Shown in pieces: positions 8,650 through 50,120 of a stretch of DNA of 50,120 bases (positions are counted from its first letter, which is position 1; the number at the start of each line of letters is the position of its first letter). The stretch comes from a virus (taxonomy: Duplodnaviria; Caudoviricetes), in IMG/VR virus record IMGVR_UViG_3300033144_001106, positions 1 to 50,120 of that record. The stretch is one strand, 5' to 3'. Position numbers and translations under genes: made by a program. A model generated the notes under the pieces. That model did not search any database, was not told where the DNA came from, and worked only from the letters and a program-made list of their open reading frames with translations.

Positions 8650-9053
8650 TGGGCTATTACGCAGCAGCAATGGCAGTTATCCAGATTGGATCGTCTGTCC
8701 TATCGGGGAAGAAGTCTAAGAGTGCTGCCAAGAAGTCTGCCCAGCTGGCAGAGCTACAGAACAAGCAGAAGGTAAGAACCTTCTTACGCAACTTCCGGAA
8801 GCAGCAAGCTATGCAAGTATCAGTAGCTGGTGCCAGAGCAGGTGGGCTAGAGAGCTCAAGAGTACAAGGTACTCTCGGTTCACAGAGAACACAAGCATTC
8901 ACAGGCATAGTAGAGGCTCATCAAATCAATCAACTTCAGAAGAAGATCCTTAAGAAGGGTGGACAAGCCCAGACCTTTAACCTACTGGGCGATATAGCAG
9001 GAGCAGCTGGTAACTTCTTCTCTTCTTCCGCTGGACAGGACGTAACCGACTAA
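8649..9053 (+). CDS. Small internal virion (ejection) protein, gp14-like
   Basis: 134 aa Ala/Gly/Ser/Gln-rich with hydrophobic N-terminus following nozzle gene. Confidence 0.6.
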   Translation: MGYYAAAMAVIQIGSSVLSGKKSKSAAKKSAQLAELQNKQKVRTFLRNFRKQQAMQVSVAGARAGGLESSRVQGTLGSQRTQAFTGIVEAHQINQLQKKILKKGGQAQTFNLLGDIAGAAGNFFSSSAGQDVTD

Positions 9054-28315: not shown

Positions 28316-28533
28316 TACTCTACTACCTCTACCTCTGCCCAAGCTACGAGGTGTACTATGTTACCACCTTCGTCATAACATAGTGAGTACATACCATCTA
28401 TGTGAGAGAAGGTGAGTACCTCACTGTCAACGAAGTCCCGGTGACAAGGTGGGTGCATAGTTCCCTTTTCTTCCGGGTCGGGGATCAGACGTACCTTGAC
28501 TCCCTGTCTCTGTCTTACTTCATGTAATTGCAT
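28315..28533 (-). CDS. Hypothetical protein
   Basis: Start refined to ATG 28533 overlapping upstream stop; HIDGMYSLC. Confidence 0.55.
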   Translation of the reverse strand: MQLHEVRQRQGVKVRLIPDPEEKGTMHPPCHRDFVDSEVLTFSHIDGMYSLCYDEGGNIVHLVAWAEVEVVE

Positions 28534-29414
28534 TACGTTATCTCCGGAGCCTTCGGCTCTCTGTGTACTACAGTTAGATCGACTGGCTTGTGACTGTACG
28601 CAAAGGTGCGTAGTCCCGGCCAGCATTGCTTCTTGAAATCACAGTAAGCACATGCAATAGGTAAGCACATGTTACCACTCTTGCCATACGGCTCATCAGT
28701 GTATCCCTTGACTACATCACACTCATCCTCTGTCTCAATAGCCTCGATGATAGCATGAGCACGGCTCTCGATGTCAACAACAGTAGGTACGTCACACTCA
28801 GTGTAAGCGATGTGTCCGTTCTGTTTGTCTATCCAGATGAACCCTTGTTCTGCATTACCGAACCCACCGTATGCTGAGTAGAACCCTAGCTGCCACAAGT
28901 ACCCGAACGAATCGTTCTGGTGATTGATACCTTGCTTGTACCTAGTGAACCCGTAGCTAGATGTGGTCTTGACATCCATCAGGACACCATCAACAACACC
29001 ATCTATCCTGCCTGAGATCAGCCAGTCCTGCTGGTCACCACTCCTAAAGAGTTGGTACTCTACTCTAGCCTGTTGGTCGGTCACTGTGTGACCTGCCTCC
29101 TCTGCCATGTAGAGTACAGCCTCCTCCAGTATGTTACCATACAGGAACTTGAACTTGGTGTGTCCAAGTAGAGGTGCTTGCTTCTCAGGCATGTTGAAGT
29201 TGTACCAGTGCTTACGTAAGCATGACTTGCCTAGATCACTAGCCCATAGCTTGCCCCTCTCACGGGGTTTATCCCGCTTGAGGGTAGCCTTAGCCATCTC
29301 ACCACCGATACGCATAGCGTAGTCGGCAGCAAGCTGACCGTCTGGTTCGTGATCTTGACTAGCATCCAACACCATATAGATGTCAGTTGCTACCGTGTCA
29401 ATGATCTTACTCAT
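28533..29414 (-). CDS. PD-(D/E)xK Cas4-like exonuclease
   Basis: S.LG..C.RK.WY, G...E, GRID...DVKT, Q...Y, C.YC..K..CW Fe-S-type cysteines. Confidence 0.85.
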   Translation of the reverse strand: MSKIIDTVATDIYMVLDASQDHEPDGQLAADYAMRIGGEMAKATLKRDKPRERGKLWASDLGKSCLRKHWYNFNMPEKQAPLLGHTKFKFLYGNILEEAVLYMAEEAGHTVTDQQARVEYQLFRSGDQQDWLISGRIDGVVDGVLMDVKTTSSYGFTRYKQGINHQNDSFGYLWQLGFYSAYGGFGNAEQGFIWIDKQNGHIAYTECDVPTVVDIESRAHAIIEAIETEDECDVVKGYTDEPYGKSGNMCLPIACAYCDFKKQCWPGLRTFAYSHKPVDLTVVHREPKAPEIT

Positions 29415-31807: not shown

Positions 31808-33063
31808 CTGCTGTTACTCCCCGGAAACTGTGATGACATGAACCTGCCAGTGCCTACGTCGAAGTCACACTCAGTACGTATGTGCTTGAGTGTCAGGTCA
31901 CAGCATGGGGCTGGTGGTATCTTGTTCTTAGCCACATGTATGTACCTCTTGTCTGTCGGTGCATTGTTGTCCATGCCTATCATGATTAGTATGTCGGCTT
32001 CCCCCTGTAGTGCGGTCTTGCTCTTGTAGATACGATCTTGAGGGATATACTGCATCCCTTCAGCGCTTGGGTCTGCCTGCACAATTGCCAAAACTGGGCC
32101 GTACTCCTGTGAAACTCTGCGCAGCTCAGTACCGAGAGCTTCGAACTTATCATGGTCTTCCTTCTTGCCTGTGCCTCCAACTTTGAGGAGCACGTTGATA
32201 CCAATGATGTCATACTTCTCCCTCTTCAAGGCTTGCTTAATCTTAGTGATGTCCATGTTGGTGTCGTGTATCAAGTCCCACTTCCTACCATCTAGCCACT
32301 TCTCATACTTCTGCTGATGTAAGGCAGGGGCTGCCATCATAGCACGGTAGTCTACGTCTAGTGCAGCACTGATCATACGAGTGAACACCTTGTCCGGTGC
32401 TTCCTCGTTGTTAAAGAACACTGCCTTGCCCCCCTTAGGTAACTGCTCGAGCATGTGACTCATCTCTGAACAGAGGAATGACGTACCTCCCACTTCGGGA
32501 CGTTTGCCAACAATGGTAACGTCACCTGTTCGCACAGGCCCAATGGCTTTGTTGAGATCTTCGAGCCTCCAGTAGAGTCCGTCGTCACTGCGCTGATGCT
32601 GAGCGAGATCGTCGAGGGTGAGCATTTGAGACCCGCATTTGCTTGTATCACGGTTGTCACAGTGTGACTCAAGGGCAGTGATAATCTCGCTAGGGTTCGC
32701 ACTGCCTTCCTCCAACCTACGCCCTTGTCGTTCAAGCTCCGAGCCGAATCGAAGACTCTCCAGTTGATCCGTGAATACCTGCCTATCAGGGGTTGGTCGC
32801 GCAAGGACGTTATAAACAATCGACTCGTATGCCTTGTGTGCTTCCGGCTTCCAACCGGGGTGTCCATGTACTCTGAACCACATGATGAAGTCACGATCTA
32901 CCTCCGTTGATTGTGGGTACTGCTCATAATATTTCCCGAAATCTTGCACCAATGTCCAAGACTCCTTAGTGCATAGTCCCTTGTGTACTACCTTGCCGTA
33001 TGCGTCATACCCGTCTCTCGTAGTGAGTATCTTGAGTACGTCAAGGTCGATGTTGTCTATCAT
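31795..33063 (-). CDS. DnaB/SF4-like replicative helicase with deviant Walker motifs
   Basis: RPEVGGT, NNEE, QA, SKT..QGEAD..I..G, KNK motifs; between primase and pol. Confidence 0.8.
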   Translation of the reverse strand: MIDNIDLDVLKILTTRDGYDAYGKVVHKGLCTKESWTLVQDFGKYYEQYPQSTEVDRDFIMWFRVHGHPGWKPEAHKAYESIVYNVLARPTPDRQVFTDQLESLRFGSELERQGRRLEEGSANPSEIITALESHCDNRDTSKCGSQMLTLDDLAQHQRSDDGLYWRLEDLNKAIGPVRTGDVTIVGKRPEVGGTSFLCSEMSHMLEQLPKGGKAVFFNNEEAPDKVFTRMISAALDVDYRAMMAAPALHQQKYEKWLDGRKWDLIHDTNMDITKIKQALKREKYDIIGINVLLKVGGTGKKEDHDKFEALGTELRRVSQEYGPVLAIVQADPSAEGMQYIPQDRIYKSKTALQGEADILIMIGMDNNAPTDKRYIHVAKNKIPPAPCCDLTLKHIRTECDFDVGTGRFMSSQFPGSNSRCTK

Positions 33064-33944
33064 AATCCCGCTCCTGTTATTGTCTTGAGTATCATACCGG
33101 GTTGGTACAGCTTAGGATCACAGTCCGTTATGTTCTGCCGTACATCCACGCCTGATACCAAGTGCCATGTCTTAGCTATGCTGTGTGATTGATCTAAGAT
33201 GTGGTCACCGTCGTTGTCTAGCCACACTAACCCCATGTGCATGTCAGGGCAATCGTTCAGTGCTTCCACCTTAGTCTTGACACCGTAGTTGACAAGCACA
33301 CCGAGGTGTGATGAATCAATAGGTGCGCTATAGATAGCCTCTGTTATGGCAAAGCCGCTAGCCAAGTCCTCTACCAGTATGTAATGCTTGCACCGTTCTG
33401 GGTACGGACGCATCACTGTGTATAGGATGGTGTCCTGTTCTTCTTGTGCTGTTAGATACTTAGGGGCTGCCCCGTCTAGCTGCCTCAACTGGTAGCCAAT
33501 GAGGTTTCTAGGTAGCGGGTCAATGTACTGCCATGTAGGTAAGTACACCCGATGTGAAGCTGGGTCATACTGTATCTTAGCCTCACAACATACCCGCTTA
33601 GTCATCTTCTTCTTGATCCTCCAAGCATGAGCAGCACTCGGCCAACGATCACCACACGCTACCATATTGGGTGGTATGTCGAATGTTATTCGCTTGCTCG
33701 TTCTCGGTGGGGCAAGCATAGAACCGAAGTCACGGTACGGTGTGTCGTTTGTATCACGCAGTACACCTGACTCGTTGCAGTTGTGACAGTACCCTAACAC
33801 CACGTTGGGTGAAGAGGCTGGCTTAGTAAGATACAATCTGTATCGTGTATCCTCACCAGCAGGGCAGTCCTTGTGACATACTGCTGTTGTCTCCCCTCGT
33901 ACTAGGTCATCTATCGCACTGGAGTATACAGTTAGGTCAATCAT
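33060..33944 (-). CDS. DNA primase (Zn-binding domain plus TOPRIM)
   Basis: CH..C...CH.C; YQ.R, PKY, LVED..S, WLDND; start refined to 33944 (RBS GAGGAGG). Confidence 0.85.
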   Translation of the reverse strand: MIDLTVYSSAIDDLVRGETTAVCHKDCPAGEDTRYRLYLTKPASSPNVVLGYCHNCNESGVLRDTNDTPYRDFGSMLAPPRTSKRITFDIPPNMVACGDRWPSAAHAWRIKKKMTKRVCCEAKIQYDPASHRVYLPTWQYIDPLPRNLIGYQLRQLDGAAPKYLTAQEEQDTILYTVMRPYPERCKHYILVEDLASGFAITEAIYSAPIDSSHLGVLVNYGVKTKVEALNDCPDMHMGLVWLDNDGDHILDQSHSIAKTWHLVSGVDVRQNITDCDPKLYQPGMILKTITGAGL

Positions 33945-34110
33945 CTTCGACCTCCTCATCAACCCAGTCTCTTTGCTTAGGTAGAGCATAGCCACCGGGT
34001 TCATTGTGTCCGTAGAAGTACCGGCGTACCTCCTCCTCAGTAGGGACACGCATCCTGTCCTGCTCAGGTACTCGGCGGCCTAGTTTCTTGTTGTCGTCAG
34101 AGTTAGTCAT
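33937..34110 (-). CDS. Small hypothetical protein
   Basis: Start refined to 34110 with RBS GGAGG. Confidence 0.55.
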   Translation of the reverse strand: MTNSDDNKKLGRRVPEQDRMRVPTEEEVRRYFYGHNEPGGYALPKQRDWVDEEVEDD

Positions 34111-34462
34111 TCTCTTGTACCTCCTCGGTACGTTGGTCTTGCTGACTAAGACAAGTTTCATCGTCATTAGTTCCATCACTCATAAGTGCTTGTAATCTAT
34201 CGTATTGATCGCTCATTACTGCCATCAGTACAGCTATCGTTGTCCTAAGTTCAGCCTTAGCTTGCTCAAGCCGGTACGCTCGCCATTGCCACAGTGCAAT
34301 GACAACTACTAAGCCACATGAGAACCACGATACCGTGGTACTCAGTGCTACATAGGCTAGCACTACATTCATTGCCATGAGTATAGTTAAGAACATGCTG
34401 CTCATACTTGACTCGATTACTGGTACTTTAAGTACCACAATCTCTTCTTCATCTTTCATCAC
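34103..34462 (-). CDS. Two-TM membrane protein
   Basis: Two hydrophobic segments plus coiled coil. Confidence 0.6.
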   Translation of the reverse strand: MMKDEEEIVVLKVPVIESSMSSMFLTILMAMNVVLAYVALSTTVSWFSCGLVVVIALWQWRAYRLEQAKAELRTTIAVLMAVMSDQYDRLQALMSDGTNDDETCLSQQDQRTEEVQEND

Positions 34463-36258
34463 TTGACTCCTTGCTTGATTACCTCAAACAACACGTTGTT
34501 TATCATTTCTGGGTCACTCAGTACCTTGCTGTTGTTATAGTATGTTACCACTGCATCCGACTGGATGCCTACACCGTACAGGTCTACGTCACCCCGTGCC
34601 TCAATGCTCTTAGCCACATACAGTAGGTTCTGGCTTGCATTACCAGCATACTGTCCCGCTGGACACCCATCACTCAGTACGATCAGGATCTTACGTGCCT
34701 CTGGTCGTGCATGTATCTGGTTGTATGCCCACATTACAGCATCAGCATCGTTGTTAGCAGAGCAGAAGCGATAGAACTTAGAGAACCTCTCGGCTACTTG
34801 GTATGGTGATACCTTGTCATTGAATGACTTGATCAACCCAATGTCACACTGTGAGTGTGCATCAGAGAAGGCAGCCAGTTGTACTGGTATCCTAAGGATA
34901 CGGTCGAACACTTGTACTAACCTGCCACTAGCATCAGCAGCTTGCTTCATCTTCTCACCTGCCATGCTACCTGACCAGTCAGTAAGGATATGGATACATG
35001 TATCCAACTCCTGCTTAGGGCTGAAGTTGTAGAAGATTTTCTTATTCCACTCACCACCATCAATGGGTGGCATACCTAGCTTGTATATGCTGCCCTTGTC
35101 TATCCTTCCGTGGTACTGTGCCTTGCTTACTCTAGTCCTTGACTTAGCTTGGATGTACCTACGTATCTGGTTGCCGAAGGTAGCTGCTGCCCTGTTGTCA
35201 GACATGAATGACTCAGGTGTGCCAATACCATACCAGTCATTACGTATCTCTGCCTTGTGCTTCTTCTGCTTAAGGTCAACCACGTTGATCAGGTGCTGTG
35301 GCATGAGTGCTACCCTACCCTTAGTGTAGTCAGTCCAGTCAATGCCTATGTTACCCGGCTTGCCATCCTTAGGTTGCCACTCGTCGTGCTCACTGAACAC
35401 GATGTCCTTCCAACTGACGACAGTGCCTTGCTGTTGTTGTACTTCACCCTCACCTTCACCCTCTTCTAGCTTATCACCTCCACCTTCACCTTCTTCTTCA
35501 CCGCCCTTACTACCTTCGCCCTCTTCGCCCTCACCTTGTTCATTGCGCTCCATGCTGTGCCCTTGTTGCCGTGTCTCCTCTAGTTCATCCTCGTCACTGT
35601 CAGGAAAGAGTCGCCTATATAAATCCACAGCTAAATCCCAGCAATCGTGCGGGTCTTTGGTTGCTTGCATCCTCTCAACGTACCCTTCCTTGACCAACTT
35701 AGTCGTCAGGTTCCTAGCTACCGAGGGCATACCAGCAAAGAACTTAGTGCGGCTAGCATTAGACATGCCATCCCACTCTAAGCGGGACAGTTGTCCCAAT
35801 GAACTGATAGACATGGGTGCTACCTGCTCCTCAGTGAGGTCATCATCCAGTTCAACCTTGCCCCACTTAGCAGTGATCTCCTTAAGTATGACTGCGTTCT
35901 GTCTACCTAAGGCGACAGCATCACCAGCATAGGCATTAGCTACCTCCCTCTCCATCCCATCGTCCTCGACGATATTGAACAGAGCGAATAGTTCTTCGGG
36001 AGTAGTCTTCTTGTCCAGTGCATTGCATATAGCAAACGCATCAGGCCTTTGGTGGTGACCACACTCATGTACCACGAACCCATGCAGCTTAGTCATTGCA
36101 TCCTCAGTTACAGGATGGTGTATTGCTGGTATGGTGATGTCCCTGCCATTAGTCATGGCTGTCCTAGCATGAGGGTCGAAGGTAAGAGTTACACCCTGTG
36201 ACCCACACCTACGTTGTATGACTGAGATCATCCGATCAATGTCTAGTACATCACTCAT
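34459..36258 (-). CDS. CobT-like VWA protein with N-terminal HExxH domain
   Basis: HECGH and N..ED...E in N-terminus; Glu/Gly linker; MIDAS DWSGS and SDG.P. Confidence 0.85.
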   Translation of the reverse strand: MSDVLDIDRMISVIQRRCGSQGVTLTFDPHARTAMTNGRDITIPAIHHPVTEDAMTKLHGFVVHECGHHQRPDAFAICNALDKKTTPEELFALFNIVEDDGMEREVANAYAGDAVALGRQNAVILKEITAKWGKVELDDDLTEEQVAPMSISSLGQLSRLEWDGMSNASRTKFFAGMPSVARNLTTKLVKEGYVERMQATKDPHDCWDLAVDLYRRLFPDSDEDELEETRQQGHSMERNEQGEGEEGEGSKGGEEEGEGGGDKLEEGEGEGEVQQQQGTVVSWKDIVFSEHDEWQPKDGKPGNIGIDWTDYTKGRVALMPQHLINVVDLKQKKHKAEIRNDWYGIGTPESFMSDNRAAATFGNQIRRYIQAKSRTRVSKAQYHGRIDKGSIYKLGMPPIDGGEWNKKIFYNFSPKQELDTCIHILTDWSGSMAGEKMKQAADASGRLVQVFDRILRIPVQLAAFSDAHSQCDIGLIKSFNDKVSPYQVAERFSKFYRFCSANNDADAVMWAYNQIHARPEARKILIVLSDGCPAGQYAGNASQNLLYVAKSIEARGDVDLYGVGIQSDAVVTYYNNSKVLSDPEMINNVLFEVIKQGVK

Positions 36259-36445: not shown

Positions 36446-36549
36446 TTTATGTCCTCGTTGGGCACATATATGCAGGAGTCATCTTCGTACACAACAAGAC
36501 AACCACAGGACAAATGAAGGATGTAGTCTATTCTAAAGTGGACATCCAT
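36442..36549 (-). CDS. Possible 35-aa peptide (MDVHFRIDY...)
   Basis: Translated manually; start and stop overlap both neighbours. Confidence 0.35.
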   Translation of the reverse strand: MDVHFRIDYILHLSCGCLVVYEDDSCIYVPNEDIK

Positions 36550-37655
36550 TACAGTTTCCTTGCAAAGACTTGGAAGTACATGTCCTTAGCAGTAGCCTTG
36601 TCATCCTTGCTCAGCTTGTCGAACCACGACAGCTTAAGGCCTTGCTCTAAGCTCGAGCATAACTCTGCCTTCTCAGTCCATGCCAGTAGAGCACGGACAC
36701 TGAACGTGGTGAGCAGTGCCTGTTGACTGAACGCTACACGTACCAGCTTGGCAAAGTCCAGCACCCCATTGATCTGATCAGTGGTCAGTCCTGTCTGCTT
36801 CTTAAGTAACCGGCGTTCTTGTACCTTAGGCAGGTACTCTATCTCAATAGATGCACCGATACGATCCAGTGTACTAGCATCCTGTACTTGAGCATCGAAC
36901 ACACCTGTCTCATCACCAGTACCACATGTGTTGTCAGTAAGGGTGTACCACCACTTGCCCTTCGGTGCTCTAAGTATGCGCTCCTCTGCGGTGCGACCCG
37001 GTGCATTGGGTAGCAGTACAGTGCGGTTGTTCTTCTCACGTAGTGACTGTAGTACCAGCGCACTGTTGTGTCGGAAGGCCTCATCTTCGCAGAAGATACC
37101 ACCATAGCGGAGACTATCGGTCAAGATAGTAGGCTCTTGCTTGATGAACATCTGCCCTTCCTCATTGTAGTCCAGTGAAGCACTACCTATGAGGTGATCC
37201 TCGCGTGTCTCATGGTTACATGACATACGCCAGAAGGGGATGAAGAATGTAGCTGCCCATTCTTGTACTAAGCATGACTTGCCAGTACCTTGCAGCCCAT
37301 GCAGTAGCGTGGTGTCACCACAGTACATAGCCATAGCATACTGTTCAACAGCAGGCTTGTTCCAGATCCAGTTAGGATCTTTAGCTGGGATGTGAAGCTG
37401 CGCTTCCTCATGCCAGTCACTAGCCTCAAACATGGGCAGTGACAGGTCGGGGATAGTCTTAGGCTTCCAGAATATAGAGCTGAACAAGACAGTACCGGGT
37501 GGTGTGTCTAGCTTAGCCACCGTAGTGATCTCGAACTTGTCAACTACCTCTGCCTCAACTATCGCGTTTGCTCCCTTCTCGGTAGCTAGGATAGCATTGA
37601 TTACATCAGCGTCGTACTTACCCTTGAGGGGTTGACCTGTTGAGTAGTTACTCAT
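36549..37655 (-). CDS. CobS/MoxR-like AAA+ ATPase
   Basis: Walker A GLQGTGKS, Walker B FCEDE, T.N..G, DASTLDR, S.R.L; adjacent to VWA partner. Confidence 0.9.
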   Translation of the reverse strand: MSNYSTGQPLKGKYDADVINAILATEKGANAIVEAEVVDKFEITTVAKLDTPPGTVLFSSIFWKPKTIPDLSLPMFEASDWHEEAQLHIPAKDPNWIWNKPAVEQYAMAMYCGDTTLLHGLQGTGKSCLVQEWAATFFIPFWRMSCNHETREDHLIGSASLDYNEEGQMFIKQEPTILTDSLRYGGIFCEDEAFRHNSALVLQSLREKNNRTVLLPNAPGRTAEERILRAPKGKWWYTLTDNTCGTGDETGVFDAQVQDASTLDRIGASIEIEYLPKVQERRLLKKQTGLTTDQINGVLDFAKLVRVAFSQQALLTTFSVRALLAWTEKAELCSSLEQGLKLSWFDKLSKDDKATAKDMYFQVFARKL

Positions 37656-37875
37656 CGTCAGTTTCCTTGCGTGTAGAGACACCATCTATACTGACCAGTC
37701 GCAGTTCAATCTCTAAGGAGGGAGGCTTAGGTGCATCCGTCCCGTTAAGTACCACCTGCAACGTGATGGTGTCGTTGTCTTGCTCAAACATCTTAGCTAC
37801 TGCTTGACGGACAAAGTCATCCATCTTCAGTTCCTCTGCTAAGCCTATGTCAGTTACTACTGCTTCCTCTGCCAT
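37648..37875 (-). CDS. Hypothetical protein
   Basis: 75 aa, RBS GGAGG. Confidence 0.55.
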   Translation of the reverse strand: MAEEAVVTDIGLAEELKMDDFVRQAVAKMFEQDNDTITLQVVLNGTDAPKPPSLEIELRLVSIDGVSTRKETDDE

Positions 37876-41791: not shown

Positions 41792-42109
41792 TTAATAGCC
41801 AGTCCTCTACACCTAAGTAGCGAGCATAGATGCAGCATCCCTTGTACTGAGCAAGCTCTAAGCCGCCCAACACTAATAGGTAACGCCTTGTCCCACCCCA
41901 CTAGCATGAGGCTACGAATGTACTAGCAAAACTGTTGGACAAGACGCGGTAATGTGTGCGCCCTACCTAGTAGCAACTCCGTGCTACTAGGTGTGACGAC
42001 TCGGCTCAAGACATACCGTATAGCTATACGCTACGCTCGCCATTAACTCTTAAAGGTTAATGACTGTAGTTGCTACGGGATCTCAAGTTAGCTTGAGCTT
42101 GGCTATTAA
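41792..42109 (-). ncRNA. Candidate structured non-coding RNA (unclassified)
   Basis: Nested long-range helices with G-U pairs that work on the - strand only; no long ORF in 41750-42280. Confidence 0.55.
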
Positions 42110-42233
42110 CGTGCGGGGTACAACCCATGCCTAAGCACGTATAACTAGGAGGTCACGGTCTTACTACGTAAGATGCCCCGGACAGCACCGTGCCATAACG
42201 CTAGGCACACGGACGTAGTGGAGAACAGCCACT

Positions 42234-42262
42234 AAAAGAGGACACTCCAAAGGAGTGCCCTC
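42234..42262 (-). terminator. Intrinsic terminator-like hairpin
   Basis: GAGGGCACTCC-TTT-GGAGTGTCCTC-TTTT on - strand just after stop at 42280. Confidence 0.65.
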
Positions 42263-42279
42263 GATAGTAGCCCTATTAT

Positions 42280-42621
42280 CTAGGGTTGGAAGGAGCCAAC
42301 GGCTCCCTTGCATGAGGCTTGCTTCGCAACAACCTCATCGAACCTGCTTCGCAGGGCATAAGCTAGCTTAGTTTCGCCAGCCTTATTACGTCGTGCATAA
42401 AGCACAACCTCTTCGCCCTTATTGGTCGCATGTTCTGCGGCCTTGACGGTCATGTGAGCGAGGTAGGCCTCGTCCACTTGAACAGCCCCTTCGGGGGTAG
42501 CTGGTGCTGCTATTGCAGCGGGAGCAGCTACTGCATTAGCAGTAAGTGCCGTAATCAGGCGGTCAAAGCCTGAGTCAAGGGCATCAAGGATGTCCTTATT
42601 GCTCGTTCGTGCTGTACCCAT
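42280..42621 (-). CDS. Early protein with Ala/Pro linker
   Basis: 113 aa, RBS AAGGAG, followed by terminator. Confidence 0.7.
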   Translation of the reverse strand: MGTARTSNKDILDALDSGFDRLITALTANAVAAPAAIAAPATPEGAVQVDEAYLAHMTVKAAEHATNKGEEVVLYARRNKAGETKLAYALRSRFDEVVAKQASCKGAVGSFQP

Positions 42622-42997
42622 GTTGGTACTCCTTCGGCATGTTGCCGTTGTCTTGCATTATGGGGGTACGTCCATCGCACCCCACTCACTTCGTTCGTGG
42701 GGTGCTATGGACGACCAACACCTTCGGTGTTGTTTTCTTGCCACACTTCAGCACCTTCGGTGCTGGTGCTCACTGTCCACCCTATTAGCATAGCTAATAG
42801 GAAGATGCAAGCTAACTCAATCAACTCAGCACCTATGGTGCTGTTCTGTTGCCTTGTATACCCGCGCATCTAACTCTCCTTCGGGGCATAGCCCCGATAG
42901 TGCCGACGATTCCTCAAGTACCTAGCCTTAAGGCTAGATACTACGTGAGGTGCATAACCTACTAGCATAGCTAGTAGGACGAGTGCTTGAAGGTCGT

Positions 42998-43351
42998 TCA
43001 TGCTGCTACTCCTTTGGAGTCCCAAGCTGCGCCGCTAATTGGCGGCAAGTCCAGTGATACCAGAGGTATCTCTGTGTCGTAGTCATCAGGCACATAGTAC
43101 GCTGCCCTTACCCGAAGGGAACCTTCGGGATTCCAGTATCCCGTCAGGCTTTCAGCCTGTAACGGTGTGTCATTGTCTATGACAATGCCGAAGCGCCACA
43201 TGGCATCCCAAAGGTGTTCACTTGTAGTGAACCCGACGAGCCACTCGATTTCCTCCATCAGAGATGGAGTGTACCCAATGTCTGCCATGTCAAGGCCAAA
43301 GGCCTTATATATCATGTCCAGCTCCGCTGGACTCAGGCTATCAGCTAGCAT
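42998..43351 (-). CDS. Acidic early protein
   Basis: 117 aa, RBS AAAGGAG. Confidence 0.6.
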   Translation of the reverse strand: MLADSLSPAELDMIYKAFGLDMADIGYTPSLMEEIEWLVGFTTSEHLWDAMWRFGIVIDNDTPLQAESLTGYWNPEGSLRVRAAYYVPDDYDTEIPLVSLDLPPISGAAWDSKGVAA

Positions 43352-43532
43352 CGTTGCTCTCCTTTAGTAGCGTAGCTACTATGATTTCGTCCATGATTGC
43401 TATGCAATCGTCGTAGGTGATGACTCGTTCACATTCGATGCAATGTCCAGAGGACATCAGGTAATCACCACATCCAGAGCAAAGCTCAGGATGTATGTGA
43501 TCGGCAGAGCCGATGTGGTTGATATCGTCCAT
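43341..43532 (-). CDS. Small zinc-finger early protein
   Basis: CSGC...CIEC; start refined to 43532 after AGGAG. Confidence 0.6.
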   Translation of the reverse strand: MDDINHIGSADHIHPELCSGCGDYLMSSGHCIECERVITYDDCIAIMDEIIVATLLKESNDAS

Positions 43533-43542
43533 GTCAAATCTC

Positions 43543-43767
43543 CTAACAGTCGTAGACTGTGTCGTTGAGCCTAAGCTCCGCTTCACCGTCGAAGCTGTGC
43601 CAACTACGTTGGCGGCCAATCTCAGGGTTCCAATCCAGCTCCGCTGGACTAGCACCTAGTTGCGAATCATCTTCGATGTGCCGTTCTACTTCCTCAGCTA
43701 CGCTGAGTCCCCAAGCTTCAACGTAACCGAGGTTAGCGAAGCTAAAATACATGATCAAATTTGGCAT
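43543..43767 (-). CDS. First early gene, acidic hypothetical protein
   Basis: Start refined to 43767 after GGAG, downstream of sigma70 promoter. Confidence 0.55.
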   Translation of the reverse strand: MPNLIMYFSFANLGYVEAWGLSVAEEVERHIEDDSQLGASPAELDWNPEIGRQRSWHSFDGEAELRLNDTVYDC

Positions 43768-43862
43768 CGGTGTTCTCCATAGGTTGAGGAGGGGGATATG
43801 CCCTTTCCTCACTCCGTGAGGGAAAGGGCTATCCCCTCTCCATCTCAGCACAGCAGACCAAG

Positions 43863-43891
43863 AGTATACTCTTGGTACGTACATGTGTCAA
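43863..43891 (-). promoter_or_regulatory. Sigma70-type early promoter
   Basis: TTGACA-17 nt-TATACT on the - strand at the head of the early arm. Confidence 0.85.
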
Positions 43892-44462
43892 GCGTAGGCG
43901 CTACGCGGCGCACACAGATCCTTAAGCTATGCTTAAGGTTATGTAAGGGTTAAATTGTACAGAGTGGAAAGAAAAACAAAGACCTATGGTCTTTGGTTAA
44001 GGGGGAAATTGGTTTGCATAATCAGTGAATGAGAATCACTTACACGTTATGTAACACCACATATGGGGAAGTTAGACCATATAAGGTCGATATGACATAA
44101 GGGGGGGCGGGGGTTTACGGGCGCTTCCCTTACAGGGAAAGCCAAGGTAAATAAATCTCGGAGAAATGTTAGAACCCTCCAGCCCTTTGGTACCAGTCGA
44201 TGTTCAATCGAATGGAACTTTCTTCCATAATAACTGTCTTAAACATAAAAGCACTGATAGTTCTATACACTCCTACAGAGTGTTAAGAGTAAAAAGACCT
44301 GTTTATGCGGAGAACTACTCTATATATTAGCTAAAGCTAATATGATAGAATCATAGTAAATAACTGACAATTTCGGTAATTAGAGCCCCTAGCGGGGCCA
44401 CAATACAACCCCTCACACAGTTGAAGCTGCCAATGAGGGGTTTACTTCCTGCGCGAGACCCT

Positions 44463-44735
44463 ATGTCAACAAAAGGAAAGGCACTGATAGCACAAGGCCG
44501 GACTCTGGCACACCAGAGCCGTAGCTCCAAGGTGTTATCCAACAAATCCAAGCTCAAAGCCGGACAAGCATCAGCCAAGAGGCTTATAGCTGGAACGAGA
44601 GCAAACGCTAAAGAACTCGAGCAGAAGATGGCTAAAGAACGCGCTGGGCGCGACAAAGCTGTCAACAAGAGCTCGAGTCAAGGAGGACGGGTGCTCAAGA
44701 GCGCCAAAAGGATCCTCAATGCGCTGACATCATGA
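44463..44735 (+). CDS. Small very basic protein
   Basis: Lys/Arg/Ala/Ser-rich; ATG at 44463. Confidence 0.5.
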   Translation: MSTKGKALIAQGRTLAHQSRSSKVLSNKSKLKAGQASAKRLIAGTRANAKELEQKMAKERAGRDKAVNKSSSQGGRVLKSAKRILNALTS

Positions 44736-44744
44736 AGACATCAC

Positions 44745-45338
44745 TTGAGTAGTTCTTCAGCAGCCCCCGTAGGGGGCTTAGCGACTGCACCTGCAAGCAG
44801 TCCACAGATTGCACTAAGCGGGGACATCTTCGAGTCCTTCAAGGACACGCAAGGCCGGTTCCGGACTAAGTCTTTGTTCATTGAGACCCCTCATGGCTCG
44901 TACCCCGCTTTCTTTACAACGAAGTCTTACGATTTCACTAAGAATGGTAAGACGTACTTCAGTTTATACCGCAAGTACATGGAAATAAGTGATCCTACAG
45001 AATATCAGGTGGCGATTCAACTCTTTGGCTCTTGGGAGCACTGGGTGCTCATCACTAAGAGCAAATGGTTCACACAACTCATTACCCCGTGGCGCTTAGA
45101 GCTCCAAGTCAAGATGGAGAGCACTAGGTACCACGAGATGAAAGGACACATAGCAAATGACCCCGGATCCCCTTCAGCTATCCAAGCATCTAAATGGCTT
45201 GCAGCGCGATATGGCGAAAGTGAAACAGTCAAGAGGGGTCGTCCGACTAAGGCTGAGAAAGAAGGCCATCTCAAACGAGTCACAGCGGCAGAGAAAGAAC
45301 TAGAGGAAGATATGCTACGAATCGGTATGGTTAAGTAA
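44745..45338 (+). CDS. Putative terminase small subunit
   Basis: GRFRT.SLF, DPTEY..A...G.W.HW, WR.EL, RGRP.K motifs; upstream of terL; start uncertain. Confidence 0.55.
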   Translation: MSSSSAAPVGGLATAPASSPQIALSGDIFESFKDTQGRFRTKSLFIETPHGSYPAFFTTKSYDFTKNGKTYFSLYRKYMEISDPTEYQVAIQLFGSWEHWVLITKSKWFTQLITPWRLELQVKMESTRYHEMKGHIANDPGSPSAIQASKWLAARYGESETVKRGRPTKAEKEGHLKRVTAAEKELEEDMLRIGMVK

Positions 45339-46363
45339 TGGCTGCCTCAGACGGAGGCCACGTATGGCCCCCTAGGGCATCAGACCTTAGGATCCAAGAA
45401 CTAACAGGCGCAGGAGCAGAGCTCTCTAAGCCCGGTGATGTCTTTGCAGCCCTTAGGGCCGAAGGCTATACAGGGTCGATAGACGACATGTGGCATCAGC
45501 ACTTAGTAGTGGCTGGCATCACTGATACCAGTGAGCCTTTCACTGGCAGCCTTGCTACCACTATTGTAGGCCCAGACATCATGGACTTTGCAACCGGGCC
45601 GGTTGCTGGTGACATAATCTTGGATATCTCTCCCTCGTGGGGGCCGATGGGCTTTCACGTAGACTCTACAGAGACCTATGCCCTCTACGGTGAGAATGAC
45701 GGGGACTACCTGATACTTGGCACTATGAGTACGCCGGGGGACATCTCCACGCTGACCCAGACCAATGTCAGCTCAGATGTAGGCCCACCGCCTGAAGGCG
45801 TTGCTATCACTGACGCTGGCACCAGAGTCTTCTATTGCGGCACTAACTACGTCTACTCGAGGCCACTAAGCTCTGCTTGGGACTTAACAAGTATGGGAGC
45901 CTCAGATGCTAGCATACAGTTCACTGGGCTTGCTAACCCTATAACAGACATATTCCTTGACCACGCCGGGGCAAACCTGATCGCTTGCGATAAGACCGGC
46001 AAGGTACAAATGGTTACTCTTGGTACTGCTAACGACCTATCGAGTGCTGGCAGCATTACCACATCGACCGTTATGCTTGGGAAAATTGCTACCACGGAGT
46101 CCAAGGCAGTCTGTCTTGATCCTTCGGGCACTAAGATGTACATGAGTAATGCCGTAGGCGCAGGTAAGATTCACATGGGAGTGATGTCTACTGCCGCCGA
46201 CCTGAGTACAATGACATATACATCCGTCCCTGCTAACGTAATTACTCTGACGGGCACCGCCAACAACAACCCTATTGGCATGGGTATGAGTGCAGACGCT
46301 CAGACCCTCTGGGTATATGGTGACGTTCAGAACAGGTGTGCAGTCTTAAGGCTCGCCCCTTAG
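45338..46363 (+). CDS. Beta-propeller protein (possible virion appendage)
   Basis: Repeated [ST]..D[IL]S[ST] blade motif (STPGDIST, SSAWDLTS, GTANDLSS, STAADLST). Confidence 0.6.
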   Translation: MAASDGGHVWPPRASDLRIQELTGAGAELSKPGDVFAALRAEGYTGSIDDMWHQHLVVAGITDTSEPFTGSLATTIVGPDIMDFATGPVAGDIILDISPSWGPMGFHVDSTETYALYGENDGDYLILGTMSTPGDISTLTQTNVSSDVGPPPEGVAITDAGTRVFYCGTNYVYSRPLSSAWDLTSMGASDASIQFTGLANPITDIFLDHAGANLIACDKTGKVQMVTLGTANDLSSAGSITTSTVMLGKIATTESKAVCLDPSGTKMYMSNAVGAGKIHMGVMSTAADLSTMTYTSVPANVITLTGTANNNPIGMGMSADAQTLWVYGDVQNRCAVLRLAP

Positions 46364-47898
46364 TGGATAACCTAGCACTTATCAAGCAAGCGGCAGAAGA
46401 CGACCTCCTGACATTCATCAGGTTGGTCGCGCCGCATAGAGTGTTGGGTAAGTGCCACGAGGAGCTCATCAAATGGTGGTGCCGTGACGATGCCGGTGAT
46501 CATCAGATGGCCTTGATCCCTAGAGATCATCAGAAGTCTACAATGGTTGCGTACCGATGTGCATGGGAGATTACAAGGGATCCTTCGATCACTATCTTGT
46601 ATATCTCTGCAACATCGGGACTAGCTGAGAAACAGCTCAAGTTCATCAAAGACATTTTGGAACACCCCAAGTACACAAAGTTCTGGCCGGATATGATTCA
46701 TCCGGAGGAAGGCAAACGAGACAAGTGGACTAATGCGGAAATTAACGTCGATCATCCTTTGCGAACCACGGAAGGAGTTAGGGACTCCACAGTGTTCACT
46801 GCGGGACTCACTACTTCAATTACAGGTTTACACTGCAATATCGCAGTGCTTGACGATGTCGTTGTCAATGAAAACGCATATACCCGCGACGGAAGAAAGA
46901 AAGTCGAAAGCCAGTACTCACTACTCGCGTCGATTGAGACGACGGACGCGAGGGAGTGGATCGTAGGTACACGGTACCATCCTAAGGATCTGTACGGTGT
47001 ACTAGTCAAGACATCAGTAGATGTTGTCAACGAACACGGAGATGTACTAGACACTGCACCTGTCTATGAGGTCTACCAGAAAGAGGTAGAGGACATGGGC
47101 GACGGCACCGGAGAATACCTCTGGCCTCGTCAACAGCGCGGTGATGGCAAATGGTTTGGCTTTAACGCACAGGTACTAGCCCTCAAGAGAGCTAAGTACT
47201 TGGACAGGACACAGTACCACGCTCAGTACTACAACAACCCTAATGACCCCCATAATGAAGCTATCTCTAGTGAGTACTTCCAGTACTACAACAGAGAGAT
47301 GATTCAGAAGCGAGACGGAGTGTGGACATACAACGGGAAGCCTTTAGCAGTCTTCGCTGCCATTGACTTCGCATACAGCTTGCGGAGTACAGCTGACTAC
47401 ACAGTATTGATAGTCATTGGTGTTGACCACGAGGGTAACATCTTCGTACTGGATATCAAGCGTGAGCGCACGAACAAGACGGCCAGATACTACGACATGG
47501 TCAGGGAAGCCCACATGAAGTGGGGATTCAAGAAGATCAGGGCAGAGGTAACAGCTGCTCAGTCCATCATAGCCGAGAGGCTTAAGGATGACATCAGGCA
47601 GGAAGGGTTGCTCTTATCGGTAGAGGACTTCCGTCCTACAAGGACTATGGGCTCTAAGGAGGAGCGTATGCTCAACCAGCTGAAGCCCCGCTACGAGAAC
47701 ATGAGCATCTGGCACTACTACGGTGGCCTGTGTGAGGATCTCGAGCAAGAGCTTATACAGCACAACCCAGCGTTCGATGACATTAAGGATGCACTACACT
47801 CGGTCATGGGGATCATGCGGATCCCAATGAACCACGGCTTAAGGCGTAGTCAACGTACTATAACATCGCATAGTCGCTTCGGCGGTGTTGCAGCGTAA
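46363..47898 (+). CDS. terL: Terminase large subunit
   Basis: Walker A PRDHQKST, Walker B VLDD, GTRYH..D, nuclease IDFA...DY and DD..DA; start refined to GTG 46363. Confidence 0.95.
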   Translation: MDNLALIKQAAEDDLLTFIRLVAPHRVLGKCHEELIKWWCRDDAGDHQMALIPRDHQKSTMVAYRCAWEITRDPSITILYISATSGLAEKQLKFIKDILEHPKYTKFWPDMIHPEEGKRDKWTNAEINVDHPLRTTEGVRDSTVFTAGLTTSITGLHCNIAVLDDVVVNENAYTRDGRKKVESQYSLLASIETTDAREWIVGTRYHPKDLYGVLVKTSVDVVNEHGDVLDTAPVYEVYQKEVEDMGDGTGEYLWPRQQRGDGKWFGFNAQVLALKRAKYLDRTQYHAQYYNNPNDPHNEAISSEYFQYYNREMIQKRDGVWTYNGKPLAVFAAIDFAYSLRSTADYTVLIVIGVDHEGNIFVLDIKRERTNKTARYYDMVREAHMKWGFKKIRAEVTAAQSIIAERLKDDIRQEGLLLSVEDFRPTRTMGSKEERMLNQLKPRYENMSIWHYYGGLCEDLEQELIQHNPAFDDIKDALHSVMGIMRIPMNHGLRRSQRTITSHSRFGGVAA

Positions 47899-47922: not shown

Positions 47923-49704
47923 ATGGCACAGGTAAACAAACAAGTTCTAGAGATCAACGGACTCCTTCAACCGGAGCACATGGCTCACTTCGTCACAAAC
48001 AAGTACGTCTCTTGGAGAATCGAAAGGAATCCGTGGAACGATAGCATGAAAGAGCTCCGGAACTACATCTTCCAGACGGACACTACACAGACGACTAACG
48101 CTAAGCTCCCGTGGAAGAACAAGACTAGCATCCCTAAGATCTGTCAGATCAGGGACAACCTACACGCTAACTACTTAGCAGCTCTCTTCCCACATGACAA
48201 CTGGTTCAAGTGGGAGTCAGCAACAGAAGCCGGTGTATCTAAAGAGAACGCTCTAGTGATCGAAGGCTACATGAAGCAGAAGATCAGAGAGTCCAAGTTC
48301 AAGGCTATCATTGCTGAAGCACTGTATGACTACATCGACTACGGCAACGCCTTCGCGGAAGTAACCTATGAATCAGAAGTCCACGAGCTCCCTAATGGCG
48401 ACTCCGTCTCGGTCTACAACGGCCCTCGCCTCCACCGTATCAGCCCTTACGACATCTACTTCGATGTCTCTGCCTCTACATTTAGAGACGCAGCTAAGAT
48501 CACGAGAACCATCGTTAGCATGGGATCTCTACAACACGCCGCAAGTACTGACCCTGCATTCGCATGGGTTACAGAAGCACTTACGGATAGACACAAAGTC
48601 AGGGTCGATCTGAACTCATATTCCGATTCCGACTTGGATAAGTCCGAAGGACTCGTCATTGATGGATTCGGCAGTCTATCACAGTACTACTCTTCCGACA
48701 TGGTCGAGCTCTTAGAGTACGAGGGAGATACGTACAACGCTGACACAGGTGAAGTACAGACTAACCGTCGAGTCATTGTTATGGACAGGCGCAAGGTCGT
48801 ATCGGATACACCGATAGACTCATGGCTAGGCAGAACAAACAAAGAGCACGTAGGGTGGAGGTTACGGCCTGACAACCTAATGGCTATGGGGCCACTAGAT
48901 AATCTGGTTGGTATGCAGTACCGACTGGATCACTTAGAGAACCTTAAGGCCGATGTGTTCGACCAGATTGCTCACCCAGTAGTCTACCAGCGAGGCTTGG
49001 TAGAGGATTGGGAGTGGGGGCCGGGAGAACGTATCTTCGGAGACGTAGACTCTAACGTAGACATACTACGCCCTGACGCTACAGCACTCAACGCTGACTT
49101 CCAGAAGAACCAGATGATGCAAGACATGGAGCAGCTAGTCGGAGCCCCTCGTGAAGCGATGGGCATCCGGACACCGGGTGAGAAGACAGCCTTCGAATTC
49201 GGAGAGCTCCAGAGTGCAGCCGGTAGGCTGTTCCAGCAGAAGATCACATACTTCGAAGAGGAGTTTGTAGAGCCCCTGCTGAATCAGTTCCTAGAGAGCG
49301 CACGTAGGAACATCAACGCTACCGAGATGGTAGCGGTACAGAATGAAGACTTTGGAGTGGTGCAGTTCCTACAGCTCACTCCAGAGGTTATCAACTCTAA
49401 AGGGAAGATCTACCCCATAGGAGCAAGGCACTTTGCTAAGCAAGCACAGACAGTGCAGAACCTCCTAGGGTTTATCAACTCAGCAGCTTACCAAGACCCA
49501 GCAGTATCTACCCATATCTCAGGCAAGAAGATCGCTGAGATGATGGAAGAGAACCTAGGCCTTACACAGTACGAGCTAGTTCAAGACAACATCCGGATAG
49601 CAGAGCAGCAAGAGACGATAGCAGAGCAGCAAGAGACCGCTAAGCTCGGAACCCAAGCACAAGAGAACGTAGCAACAGACATCATCGAGAGGCCTGAGCC
49701 CTAG
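47923..49704 (+). CDS. Portal protein
   Basis: 593 aa after terL; WKNKT..PK.CQIRDNLHANY, GPLDNLVGMQYR.DHLEN.KAD, GIRTPGEKTA. Confidence 0.92.
   Translation: MAQVNKQVLEINGLLQPEHMAHFVTNKYVSWRIERNPWNDSMKELRNYIFQTDTTQTTNAKLPWKNKTSIPKICQIRDNLHANYLAALFPHDNWFKWESATEAGVSKENALVIEGYMKQKIRESKFKAIIAEALYDYIDYGNAFAEVTYESEVHELPNGDSVSVYNGPRLHRISPYDIYFDVSASTFRDAAKITRTIVSMGSLQHAASTDPAFAWVTEALTDRHKVRVDLNSYSDSDLDKSEGLVIDGFGSLSQYYSSDMVELLEYEGDTYNADTGEVQTNRRVIVMDRRKVVSDTPIDSWLGRTNKEHVGWRLRPDNLMAMGPLDNLVGMQYRLDHLENLKADVFDQIAHPVVYQRGLVEDWEWGPGERIFGDVDSNVDILRPDATALNADFQKNQMMQDMEQLVGAPREAMGIRTPGEKTAFEFGELQSAAGRLFQQKITYFEEEFVEPLLNQFLESARRNINATEMVAVQNEDFGVVQFLQLTPEVINSKGKIYPIGARHFAKQAQTVQNLLGFINSAAYQDPAVSTHISGKKIAEMMEENLGLTQYELVQDNIRIAEQQETIAEQQETAKLGTQAQENVATDIIERPEP
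49596..49637 (+). repeat. Exact 21-bp tandem duplication (gatagcagagcagcaagagac x2)
   Basis: Present here but single-copy at 94-114; marks the switch to a variant haplotype. Confidence 0.9.
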
Positions 49705-50120
49705 TGGGAACGACTATACCAACAGATAGAAACCTAGTACCGATGACCGACGATATGTTGCTCATCTCTATGGGATGCTATCCCGGTATTGCGCACATCA
49801 ACAAGTTCGGAGAGAACGAAGACATCGCGGCTGATACAGAGGAAGACATCTGGACAGGTAGCTCACCGTACCCGTACCCAACGACAGCTACGATCACGCA
49901 CATCAGTCAGGCTGTAGATCAGGAGGCTATGCGTGGTGGTCGTATCAACATAGCAGGGCTTGACGCTAACTGGGAACTGAAGAACCAGTTCGTAATGCTT
50001 GACGGCACACTCACAACTAATGCTGTCGAACTTAGCACACCACTCATTCGTGTCTTCCGGGCAACTGTCGGTATCCAAGAGCAGATCGACTCGGCTGTTA
50101 CGATACACGACGCTGGGGAT
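49704..50120 (+). CDS. Partial divergent allele/paralogue of the 181-960 gene (truncated by window end)
   Basis: Open frame from GTG 49704: ...HINKFG...THISQ..DQ...RGG...GLDANW...LDGTLTTN.VEL.TPLIR.FR. Confidence 0.85.
   Translation, partial: MGTTIPTDRNLVPMTDDMLLISMGCYPGIAHINKFGENEDIAADTEEDIWTGSSPYPYPTTATITHISQAVDQEAMRGGRINIAGLDANWELKNQFVMLDGTLTTNAVELSTPLIRVFRATVGIQEQIDSAVTIHDAGD

Follow-up and report, generated by a model that had tools for sequence, protein, structure and literature searches.

A dense array of small hairpins overlies the head of the early gene arm in an uncultivated tailed virus (Duplodnaviria; Caudoviricetes) represented by the IMG/VR record IMGVR_UViG_3300033144_001106. 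The window analyzed here is this whole record of 50,120 bp. Between positions 42716 and 43995, on both strands, it contains 28 perfect inverted repeats, each with a 3-nucleotide (nt) spacer and stems of 5 to 9 bp, and these cover a predicted sigma70-type early promoter, its leader, and five small minus-strand genes, after which come a gene for a 113-amino-acid (113-aa) protein and a terminator. What 15 lineages conserve is the presence of such an array and not its sequence; the stems change in a compensated manner, in some cases altering the encoded proteins. The signature is most probably that of a DNA-level structure. We tentatively read the whole as a maintained field of DNA hairpins or cruciforms over the immediate-early operon, with a protective or insulating role for the first-entering DNA, a statement for which our confidence as a whole falls somewhat short of even.

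Hairpins with a 3-nt loop were counted across the window at three minimum stem lengths. Positions 42600 to 44050 held 30 of the 141 hairpins with stems of at least 5 bp, 26 of the 70 with stems of at least 6 bp (17.9 per kb, compared to approximately 0.9 per kb elsewhere), and 14 of the 22 with stems of at least 7 bp. When counted in 1-kb bins, there were 9 hairpins in 42001 to 43000 and 20 in 43001 to 44000, and every other bin contained 3 or fewer. No enrichment of 4-nt loops was measured in the same interval, which held 2 of the window's 31 such hairpins with stems of at least 6 bp. The 26 observed hairpins were then compared to those in 1,000 dinucleotide-preserving shuffles of the region, which gave a mean of 0.37 and a maximum of 3; for hairpins closed by a C-G pair, the shuffles gave a mean of 0.09 and a maximum of 2 versus 22 observed. 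Synonymous-codon shuffles of the five overprinted genes (n = 1,000) produced a mean of 2.17 and a maximum of 6 versus 22 observed, and elsewhere in the genome windows of 1451 bp contained 1.23 hairpins on average and never more than 5. When folded as single-stranded DNA, 200-nt windows of the array averaged -38 kcal/mol on either strand versus -24 +/- 5 kcal/mol elsewhere, so that, on both strands, no other part of the genome folds as stably as the array.

In order of position, the 28 hairpins lie at 42716-42732, 42749-42765, 42781-42801, 42827-42843, 42881-42897, 42958-42978, 43008-43020, 43056-43070, 43111-43129, 43145-43159, 43171-43187, 43216-43232, 43253-43269, 43292-43306, 43316-43332, 43365-43381, 43395-43409, 43443-43457, 43500-43514, 43546-43560, 43599-43613, 43634-43648, 43693-43707, 43733-43745, 43807-43821, 43892-43906, 43920-43938, and 43977-43995. 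The median centre-to-centre spacing of array hairpins is approximately 50 bp. Neither a helical nor a codon periodicity was supported, the distances modulo 3 being distributed 37, 41, and 39, and no block-wise switch of loop orientation between strands was visible along the hairpin list.

Each unit is a perfect inverted repeat of 6 to 9 bp around the 3-nt spacer, with the core C-(G/A)-(A/T/G)-A-G, or C-RDA-G, on either strand. Among the 26 window hairpins with stems of at least 6 bp, 22 were closed 5'C..G3' and 24 had loops within the R-D-A / T-H-Y set, which comprises 12 of the 64 possible triplets. For a table of the core, 105 hairpins were oriented by their purine-type loop, so that the last loop base is A by the orientation rule. 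In this table the closing pair was C..G in 93, the first loop base was G in 57 and A in 48, and the middle base was A in 48, T in 33, G in 20, and C in 4. The orientation of these 105 was not fixed (62:43), and no base outside the C-RDA-G core was conserved in their aligned stems and flanks. DNA mini-hairpins with GNA triloops, closed by C-G and with a G..A or A..A loop, are exceptionally thermostable and nuclease resistant. The present units are like them in the C-G closing pair and in the G..A or A..A loop, but the stability of those mini-hairpins is a property of oligonucleotides and not a genomic system, and in about half of the present loops the first base is A and not G.

Most stems within the window are unrelated, with three small paralogous groups: 42716/42749/42827, 42781/42958, and 43316/43634. 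Members of the first two groups differ by compensated pairs. One hairpin recurs at 43316-43332 and 43634-43648 and encodes Ser-Pro-Ala-Glu-Leu-Asp at each site, in two different early genes; early gene 5 carries three copies of a hairpin-encoded motif containing Thr/Ile-Gly. Some units have therefore been duplicated. Mobile palindromic repeats of the REP, MITE, or RPE kind were rejected as a source of the array, given the mostly unrelated stems, the restriction of paralogy to these groups, and the lack of insertions or deletions (indels). Interrupted palindromes resembling restriction sites were likewise rejected, there being no common stem sequence.

A sequence-only reading of the window had proposed such an array and listed 26 hairpins. 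All 26 are present, those at 43573, 43668, and 43477 with 4-bp stems only, and at least five others with stems of 6 to 8 bp were missing from its list (43111-43129, 43145-43159, 43171-43187, 43216-43232, and 43892-43906). Its claims that the density exceeds chance, that unrelated stems keep a common C-RDA-G core, and that 42781 and 42958 form a compensatory pair within the genome agree with the counts given above.

We looked for the array in related viruses. Since a blastn comparison with 50,697 phage records returned no nucleotide-level match to the array or the replication block, relatives were found through protein searches. When loci were grouped by the identity of their large terminase (TerL) and at least 4 kb of upstream sequence was available, the same kind of array was present 3 to 5 kb upstream of TerL in 6 of 6 loci with at least 78% TerL identity (L005 to L010) and in 0 of 7 with 62% identity or less (L022, L025, L027, L029, L030, L031, and L032). 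Three loci at 70 to 72% identity reach only the edge of the expected array position; L014 begins with four hairpins of 9 to 11 bp, and L012, at 73%, stops short of the expected position. A search with the 113-aa protein found 15 metagenome loci and 7 viral loci. Wherever at least 300 bp of sequence preceded the gene, an array lay directly upstream of it (14 of 14), and two other loci had no upstream sequence. The 117-aa product of early gene 3 was also used for an alignment scan, which added one new distant locus only, L038, without an array. None of the four database relatives scanned in full carried an array (ICP2, ICBM2, MW202697, and PQ867845). A hairpin cluster in MW202697 was rejected as an AT-repeat, and those in L011, L027, and L029 were rejected for want of the C-G and R-D-A signature.

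After the removal of near-duplicates, 15 lineages remained. Their arrays contained 257 hairpins in 16,450 bp (15.6 per kb), compared to 75 in 67,871 bp of flanking sequence (1.11 per kb). The arrays spanned 0.5 to 2.2 kb at densities of 12 to 23 hairpins per kb. All 257 hairpins had 3-nt loops, with stems of 6 bp in 69, 7 bp in 102, 8 bp in 60, and 9 bp or more in 26; 225 were closed by C-G, and 211 had R-D-A loops or the complement, compared to an expectation of 19% (12 of 64 triplets). Very few hairpins were identical between lineages, and the stem sequences were almost all different.

Where hairpin positions could be compared between orthologous genes, both arms of the stem had changed together. 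In orthologues of the 117-aa gene, at 37 to 50% identity, hairpins lay at the same codons with both arms altered, and some amino acids had been replaced: one hairpin encodes Ile-Val-x-Asp-Asn in the window versus Ile-Val-x-Asp-Asp in L006, and L007 has a Leu-Glu-Glu version shifted by one codon. In the 113-aa gene, as many as seven lineages had hairpins at corresponding codons, in two or three alternative stem versions related by compensated changes. For the structure named in alignment A4, both sides had changed in 16 of 42 pairs; its covariation score of 0.185, compared to 0.06 to 0.12 when the partners were slid by 1 to 3 columns, was reached in 2 of 500 shuffles, the structure having been derived from the same sequences, which favors it. 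Between the window and its closest relative, L039, at approximately 80% nucleotide identity, four shared hairpins showed fully compensated substitutions, one was replaced in place by an unrelated stem, and another had disappeared, a new one being present close by. Among the retained hairpins, none was seen to differ by a lone uncompensated change in the stem. Hairpins arise by substitution; in the codon alignments of the 117-aa and 113-aa genes they appear without indels. Perfect hairpins outnumbered imperfect ones 122 to 11.

This pattern bears on the main rival to our reading, a rather unlikely, non-adaptive explanation absent from the sequence-only reading, in which template switching within the quasi-palindromes of an often single-stranded segment keeps perfecting inverted repeats. 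The single-strandedness would come from end resection, heavy transcription, or the mode of replication, the process would be seeded where a stable C-RNA-G triloop nucleates, and the array would be tolerated because the early ORFan proteins are plastic. Such a process would account for the binary distribution of perfect and imperfect stems, for hairpins that in close relatives are perfect, fully compensated, or gone, for the gain and loss at positions that are only partly conserved, and for the origin of hairpins by substitution rather than insertion. The same argument has been made for the perfect coding palindromes of nematomorph mitochondria (PMC6649704). Those palindromes, as described in the part of that report available, are like the present hairpins in being perfect repeats within translated genes, in their perfect-or-absent pattern, in gain and loss, and in codon-phase bias, but they are up to 284 bp long and scattered over the mitochondrial genome, and no fixed loop motif is reported there (PMC6649704). 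The array described here has stems of 6 to 9 bp and a defined triloop core and is confined to 1.1 to 2.2 kb at the head of the early arm; it is a case of coding palindromes, with a likeness in kind only, not homology. Conversely, several findings are hard to reconcile with template switching. Nearly all stems have been replaced among the 15 lineages, and still the array keeps its location in the genome and a narrow range of densities (12 to 23 per kb); orthologues with 37 to 50% identity retain some hairpins in place; and stems remain at 6 to 9 bp with no growth. In addition, the restriction to this 1.1 to 2.2 kb and to this clade is unexplained by it, none of the four database relatives with similar replication genes carrying an array. 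An array that keeps its density and position across 15 lineages, with stems of bounded length, fits selection better than conversion, and the two are not mutually exclusive. If the array is nevertheless a by-product of template switching, it is the mark of a mutational process in the replication of phages that is confined to one region and one clade.

We then asked whether the conserved structure is one of DNA or of RNA. The juxtaposition that ends each perfect stem (n = 257) was G.T in 43, A.C in 47, and another combination in 167, a chance-like distribution, and an internal G.T occurred in 0 of 11 imperfect hairpins. A spacer of exactly 3 nt was present in 239 of 335 inverted repeats in the arrays versus 68 of 359 in the flanks. 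The R-D-A loop belonged to the sense strand 121 times and to the antisense strand 90 times; because the loop rule holds on both strands, an RNA read from one strand provides no explanation. Of seven loci examined, four (the window, L052, L053, and L059) had 3 to 6 hairpins upstream of the best sigma70-like promoter, and no sigma70-like candidate was found in the other three. These four observations, namely the lack of a G.T excess, the exclusive 3-nt spacers, the two loop orientations, and the hairpins upstream of the promoter, are our reasons for assigning the signature to DNA. They are in keeping with the sequence-only reading, which had called the hairpins DNA-type and overprinted on genes and had named covarying stems in relatives as a check; the compensated changes in related lineages and the five small minus-strand open reading frames (ORFs) with ribosome-binding sites support those claims as well.

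A role in the immediate-early mRNA, such as protection from RNases or toxins, a block to Rho loading, or the pacing of translation, is decidedly improbable in light of these results. It would be helped by the location of most of the array between a strong predicted promoter and a terminator, by the codon phase of the loops, and by two larger hairpins that look like RNA elements. Of the 22 in-gene hairpins with stems of at least 6 bp, 13 have the loop in phase 0 (an in-frame codon), 8 in phase 2, and 1 in phase 1, a preference which shows that the coding sequence and the hairpins are co-adapted. The larger hairpins could be RNA-level elements, unlike the triloop units. One is a long imperfect minus-strand hairpin of approximately 21 pairs with two bulges (43792..43836) in the predicted 5' leader, with the triloop hairpin 43807-43821 as its tip. 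The other, between genes 5 and 6 (42670..42712), has 16 pairs with one mismatch and an 11-nt loop, and both of its arms have changed in a compensated way in L039. Against an mRNA role stand the missing G.U signal (G.T 43 versus A.C 47, and none internal to the imperfect stems), the enrichment of 3-nt spacers without that of tetraloop spacing, the loop rule on both strands, the hairpins upstream of the promoter in the four loci where one was found, and the lack of any Rfam family match at E <= 0.1 in 41800-45000. Membership in a structured RNA family was rejected on the last of these grounds together with the lack of G.U-tolerant pairing. Rho-independent terminators were rejected too, as the hairpins have no T-runs and at most 3 of the 28 fit; 6 terminator-like sites were found in 42200-45000 versus 2.2 in shuffles, three of them being array hairpins (42716-42732, 42827-42843, and 43977-43995).

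The array is essentially coextensive with the first transcription unit plus approximately 100 bp upstream of its promoter, as judged from a promoter at 43891..43863 and a terminator at 42262..42238. The predicted promoter (minus strand, 43863..43891) consists of TTGACA, a 17-nt spacer, and TATACT, a consensus match at 11 of 12 positions. Sigma70-type sites numbered 3 in the region versus 2.8 expected from shuffles, so the promoter call rests on match quality and position. A 20-bp perfect palindrome at 43858..43877, read from the sequence, overlaps its -10 hexamer and is possibly an operator for a dimeric regulator. The terminator-like hairpin (minus strand, 42238..42262) has 11 pairs followed by a T-run.

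All five small genes are on the minus strand, and each is preceded by a ribosome-binding site of the GGAG type. Early gene 1 (43543..43767; 74 aa, from an ATG chosen as the start, with GGAG before it) contains 4 hairpins with stems of at least 6 bp, matched no PHROG, and had no relative in the loci searched. Early gene 2 (43341..43532; 63 aa, Cys-rich) contains 4 hairpins and also had no PHROG match. Early gene 3 (42998..43351; 117 aa) contains 8 hairpins with stems of at least 6 bp and has orthologues in L005, L006, and L007 at 37 to 50% identity, with hairpins at homologous codons. The ATG of early gene 4 (42870..43001; 43 aa; 2 hairpins) overlaps the stop codon of gene 3 (ATGA). Early gene 5 (42705..42869; 54 aa) has 4 hairpins, three of them paralogous, and weak orthologues in L005 and L006. 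The ribosome-binding sites, the overlapping stop and start codons, and the conserved orthologues suggest that the five genes are translated.

The coincidence of the array with the first and probably strongly transcribed unit would also suit a zone of replication initiation or priming, in which hairpins on the displaced strand stabilize R-loops made by transcription or seat a helicase or primase near the early promoter. This is quite improbable. In its favor, the phage encodes a DnaG-type primase, a DnaB-like helicase, and a PolA of its own, stable loops are slightly more frequent on the non-template strand (121:90), and a study of DdmABC tied PriA to the response to plasmid- or phage-borne hairpins through suppressor mutations and inhibition in extracts (PMC11707656). 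However, an origin that covered 1.1 to 2.2 kb and five or six genes would be very large, a conserved recognition sequence is absent from the 105 aligned hairpins, and the array is missing from relatives whose replication genes are the same. Iterons or an AT-rich unwinding element were not apparent in the sequence or the positional table, no repeat search having been run.

A very improbable alternative is a topological switch or sink, in which up to approximately 30 cruciforms absorb negative supercoils or block RNA polymerase and so damp early transcription once the genome is inside the cell and supercoiled. The units carry the extrusion determinants defined for N4 and are located on and around the early promoter, and independence of orientation is expected of a structure at the level of the duplex. 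On the other hand, such a sink requires a linear phage genome to be topologically constrained, and extruded cruciforms would be cut by the phage's own homologue of T7 endonuclease I (PF05367; E = 5.5e-30), which is encoded in the early arm (assigned to the set of 36 smaller ORFs scanned and not to a single one of them). This homologue also bears on when hairpins could safely extrude.

The unit resembles the hairpin of the N4 early promoters, and the arrangement is without known counterpart: no published array of this kind in a phage was found in the open-access literature searched. In N4, the closing pair and the 5'G and 3'A of the loop are needed for extrusion and stability, and the C:G closing pair with the sheared G..A loop pair permits extrusion at physiological supercoiling, according to the part of the study available (PMC4496689). 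The N4 early promoters have stems of 5 to 7 bp, compared to 6 to 9 bp here, and both have a 3-nt loop with a C:G closing pair, a 5' purine, and a 3' A. Unlike the array, they are three intergenic, oriented promoters with conserved stem and start-site bases and a dedicated polymerase, whereas the present hairpins number approximately 30 per genome, are mostly within coding sequence, and occur in both orientations with flanks that are not conserved. The sequence-only reading had linked the two systems, and this link was not supported. N4-type promoters read by a virion-carried RNA polymerase would account for the stem length, the 3-nt loop, the C:G closing pair, and the purine-N-A loop, but they are unlikely because no gene for a phage RNA polymerase was found. 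Pfam and PHROGs scans of the 56 ORFs gave no match to an RNA polymerase family; a six-frame search of the genome with PF00940 was also negative, which is a weak negative given that control genomes matched nothing either; and the 1638-aa internal virion protein matched no PDB chain. Together with approximately 30 sites located within genes, in both orientations and with unconserved flanking bases, this largely refutes the N4 reading, which we regard as close to excluded.

The location of the array in relation to the genome ends is central to the role that we propose. Both ends of the record (1-181 and 49704-50120) are inside ORFs, between the portal and scaffold region, and are therefore assembly breaks rather than physical termini. 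In Lentibacter phage ICBM2, 159-bp terminal repeats occupy exactly the point of divergence of the two gene arms, with the early arm starting on one side and the structural arm ending on the other. By synteny with this one cultured relative, the sole basis for the assignment, the ends of the present phage would fall at approximately 43.99 to 44.75 kb, and the array segment plausibly adjoins the left genome end. A segment next to that end would enter, and be transcribed, first; the sequence-only reading had likewise taken it for the probable first-injected end.

In the mechanism that we favor, this segment would be unwound by supercoiling, by transcription, or by helicase-nucleases or resection acting from a free end, and both strands would then fold into nuclease-resistant triloop hairpins every 40 to 60 nt. 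The folded strands could protect or insulate the entering end, along with genes that probably serve host takeover, from host machinery that depends on ends: a hairpin-rich end might be a poor substrate for processing of the RecBCD/AddAB type, for single-strand exonucleases, and for the loading of RecA or SSB, and poor material for spacer capture or targeting by CRISPR systems. The protective consequence is our best guess. A more specific version, an adaptive, structure-based defence of the first-entering DNA, seems to us fairly unlikely; here the released strands would fold into poor substrates for exonucleases, RecA, and spacer capture, guides against either strand would fold on themselves, and the early anti-host genes would have been recoded around the constraint.

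Several points weigh against a protective or insulating field. The record is classed as linear with its ends inside structural genes, and we infer both hairpin formation and the termini. The perfect-or-absent pattern of the stems (11 imperfect versus 122 perfect) is also expected from repeat conversion without any function. The array-bearing phages form one uncultivated clade, and their repeated occurrences of the array are therefore not independent. The excess of loops on the sense strand (121:90; p = 0.04) may simply reflect codon usage, and the phage's own endonuclease I homologue would be expected to cut extruded cruciforms. To our knowledge, there is no evidence that short hairpins stop enzymes of the RecBCD type. 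Finally, palindromic hairpins can trigger the Lamassu/DdmABC defence (PMC11707656), and the array could thus be a liability.

Two other systems were compared. The palindromes sensed by Lamassu/DdmABC are like the present ones in being short phage palindromes that are predicted to form hairpins in single-stranded DNA and that the host reads out independently of orientation; unlike them, as far as the available part of that study describes, they are dispersed, resemble RNase III sites, and trigger defence (PMC11707656). The first-step-transfer, or injection-stop, region of T5 is likewise a first-entering stretch rich in repeats, inverted repeats, and palindromes, but in the portion of the report at hand it is described as untranslated, conserved in sequence, and built around DnaA boxes (10.1101/866236). 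The present array is mostly coding and conserved as structure only; no search for DnaA boxes was made. A 2026 census of inverted repeats required arms of at least 10 bp and, in its accessible part, describes a preference in viruses for spacers of 0 or 4 bp; with this cut-off, arrays like the present one would be missed (PMC13155455).

A functional array would mean that, in a phage, DNA secondary structure can be under strong selection over the full length of protein-coding genes, with amino acids changing to keep stems paired, and it would add a structure-based layer to the ways in which phages handle the vulnerable first minutes of infection. Approximately 260 independent stems with one shared core provide a natural test bed for studies of how hairpins extrude, of nucleases that process DNA ends, of spacer acquisition, and of defences that sense hairpins, Lamassu among them.

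The downstream edge of the array is marked by the conserved 113-aa gene (minus strand, 42280..42621). In the window this gene contains one hairpin with a 6-bp stem and five weaker ones with stems of 4 to 5 bp; more are present in other lineages. It is the one well-conserved gene of the first operon, with 50 to 83% identity across lineages. In its product, a helix at the N terminus is followed by an Ala/Pro-rich linker and an alpha/beta domain at the C terminus. A profile search found at least 179 homologues at the level of 90% clusters, on contigs of up to approximately 50 kb, none with an informative name ("hypothetical protein" or no name). Neither Pfam nor PHROGs provided a match to the protein, and the ESM Atlas returned nothing at or above 0.8. 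The AlphaFold model was of moderate confidence, with a predicted local distance difference test (pLDDT) score of 73.5, and a Foldseek comparison with the PDB gave no match with E <= 0.001; p56-type phage inhibitors were among the best Foldseek matches, at an E of approximately 0.5, and were not taken as evidence. The gene is always located at the downstream edge of an array, which makes the protein a candidate hairpin-related factor, but this association is confounded by phylogeny.

The genome, which CheckV places at 100% completeness, is organized in two arms. The structural arm is on the plus strand and runs from approximately 44.7 kb across the record ends to approximately 24 kb. It includes genes for the large terminase (46336-47898), the portal or head-tail adaptor (47923-49704), the major head protein (1989-2963), a tail appendage (6199-8649), and the 1638-aa internal virion protein (9053-13969), which matches internal-virion-protein PHROGs. 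The early/replication arm is on the minus strand, from approximately 43.9 kb down to approximately 24 kb, and encodes an AAA_5 ATPase (36549-37685), a CobT/VWA protein (34459-36258), the DnaG-type primase (33060-34049), the DnaB-like helicase (31795-33063), PolA (29918-31807), and a Cas4-domain exonuclease (28533-29414). A phosphoesterase and nucleotide kinases were also found among the 36 smaller ORFs scanned. The nearest named phages by terminase, at 48 to 56% identity, belong to the Zobellviridae: Lentibacter phages ICBM1-3, roseophages CRP-4, CRP-5, and SIO1, Celeribacter P12053L, and Vibrio phage ICP2. The phage is a member of an uncultivated podophage clade related to the Zobellviridae.

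Additional observations concern the surroundings of the array. Many metagenome contigs (L039, L040, L043, L044, L045, and L047) start or end within approximately 200 bp of its first hairpin. Since L041 runs beyond the break of L040, this break, at least, arose in assembly and does not mark the end of a genome. The contig breaks near the array suggest microdiversity or assembly trouble. Within the divergent intergenic region of approximately 750 bp, only positions 44060 to 44220, approximately, have nucleotide similarity in relatives (L041, L049, and L051). This part may be a packaging or terminal-repeat signal, and the window sequence has a G-rich run near 44103-44115. Beyond it, at the start of the first structural-arm gene (44745-45338, phrog_8035 family), lies one lone hairpin whose stem is CCCC/GGGG and whose loop is G-N-A or T-A-C. 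This hairpin is kept in five lineages, at 44762-44778 in the window and at approximately 7587-7603 in L006, 580-596 in L014, 373-389 in L016, and 400-416 in L018, and its outer stem bases have changed in a compensated way.

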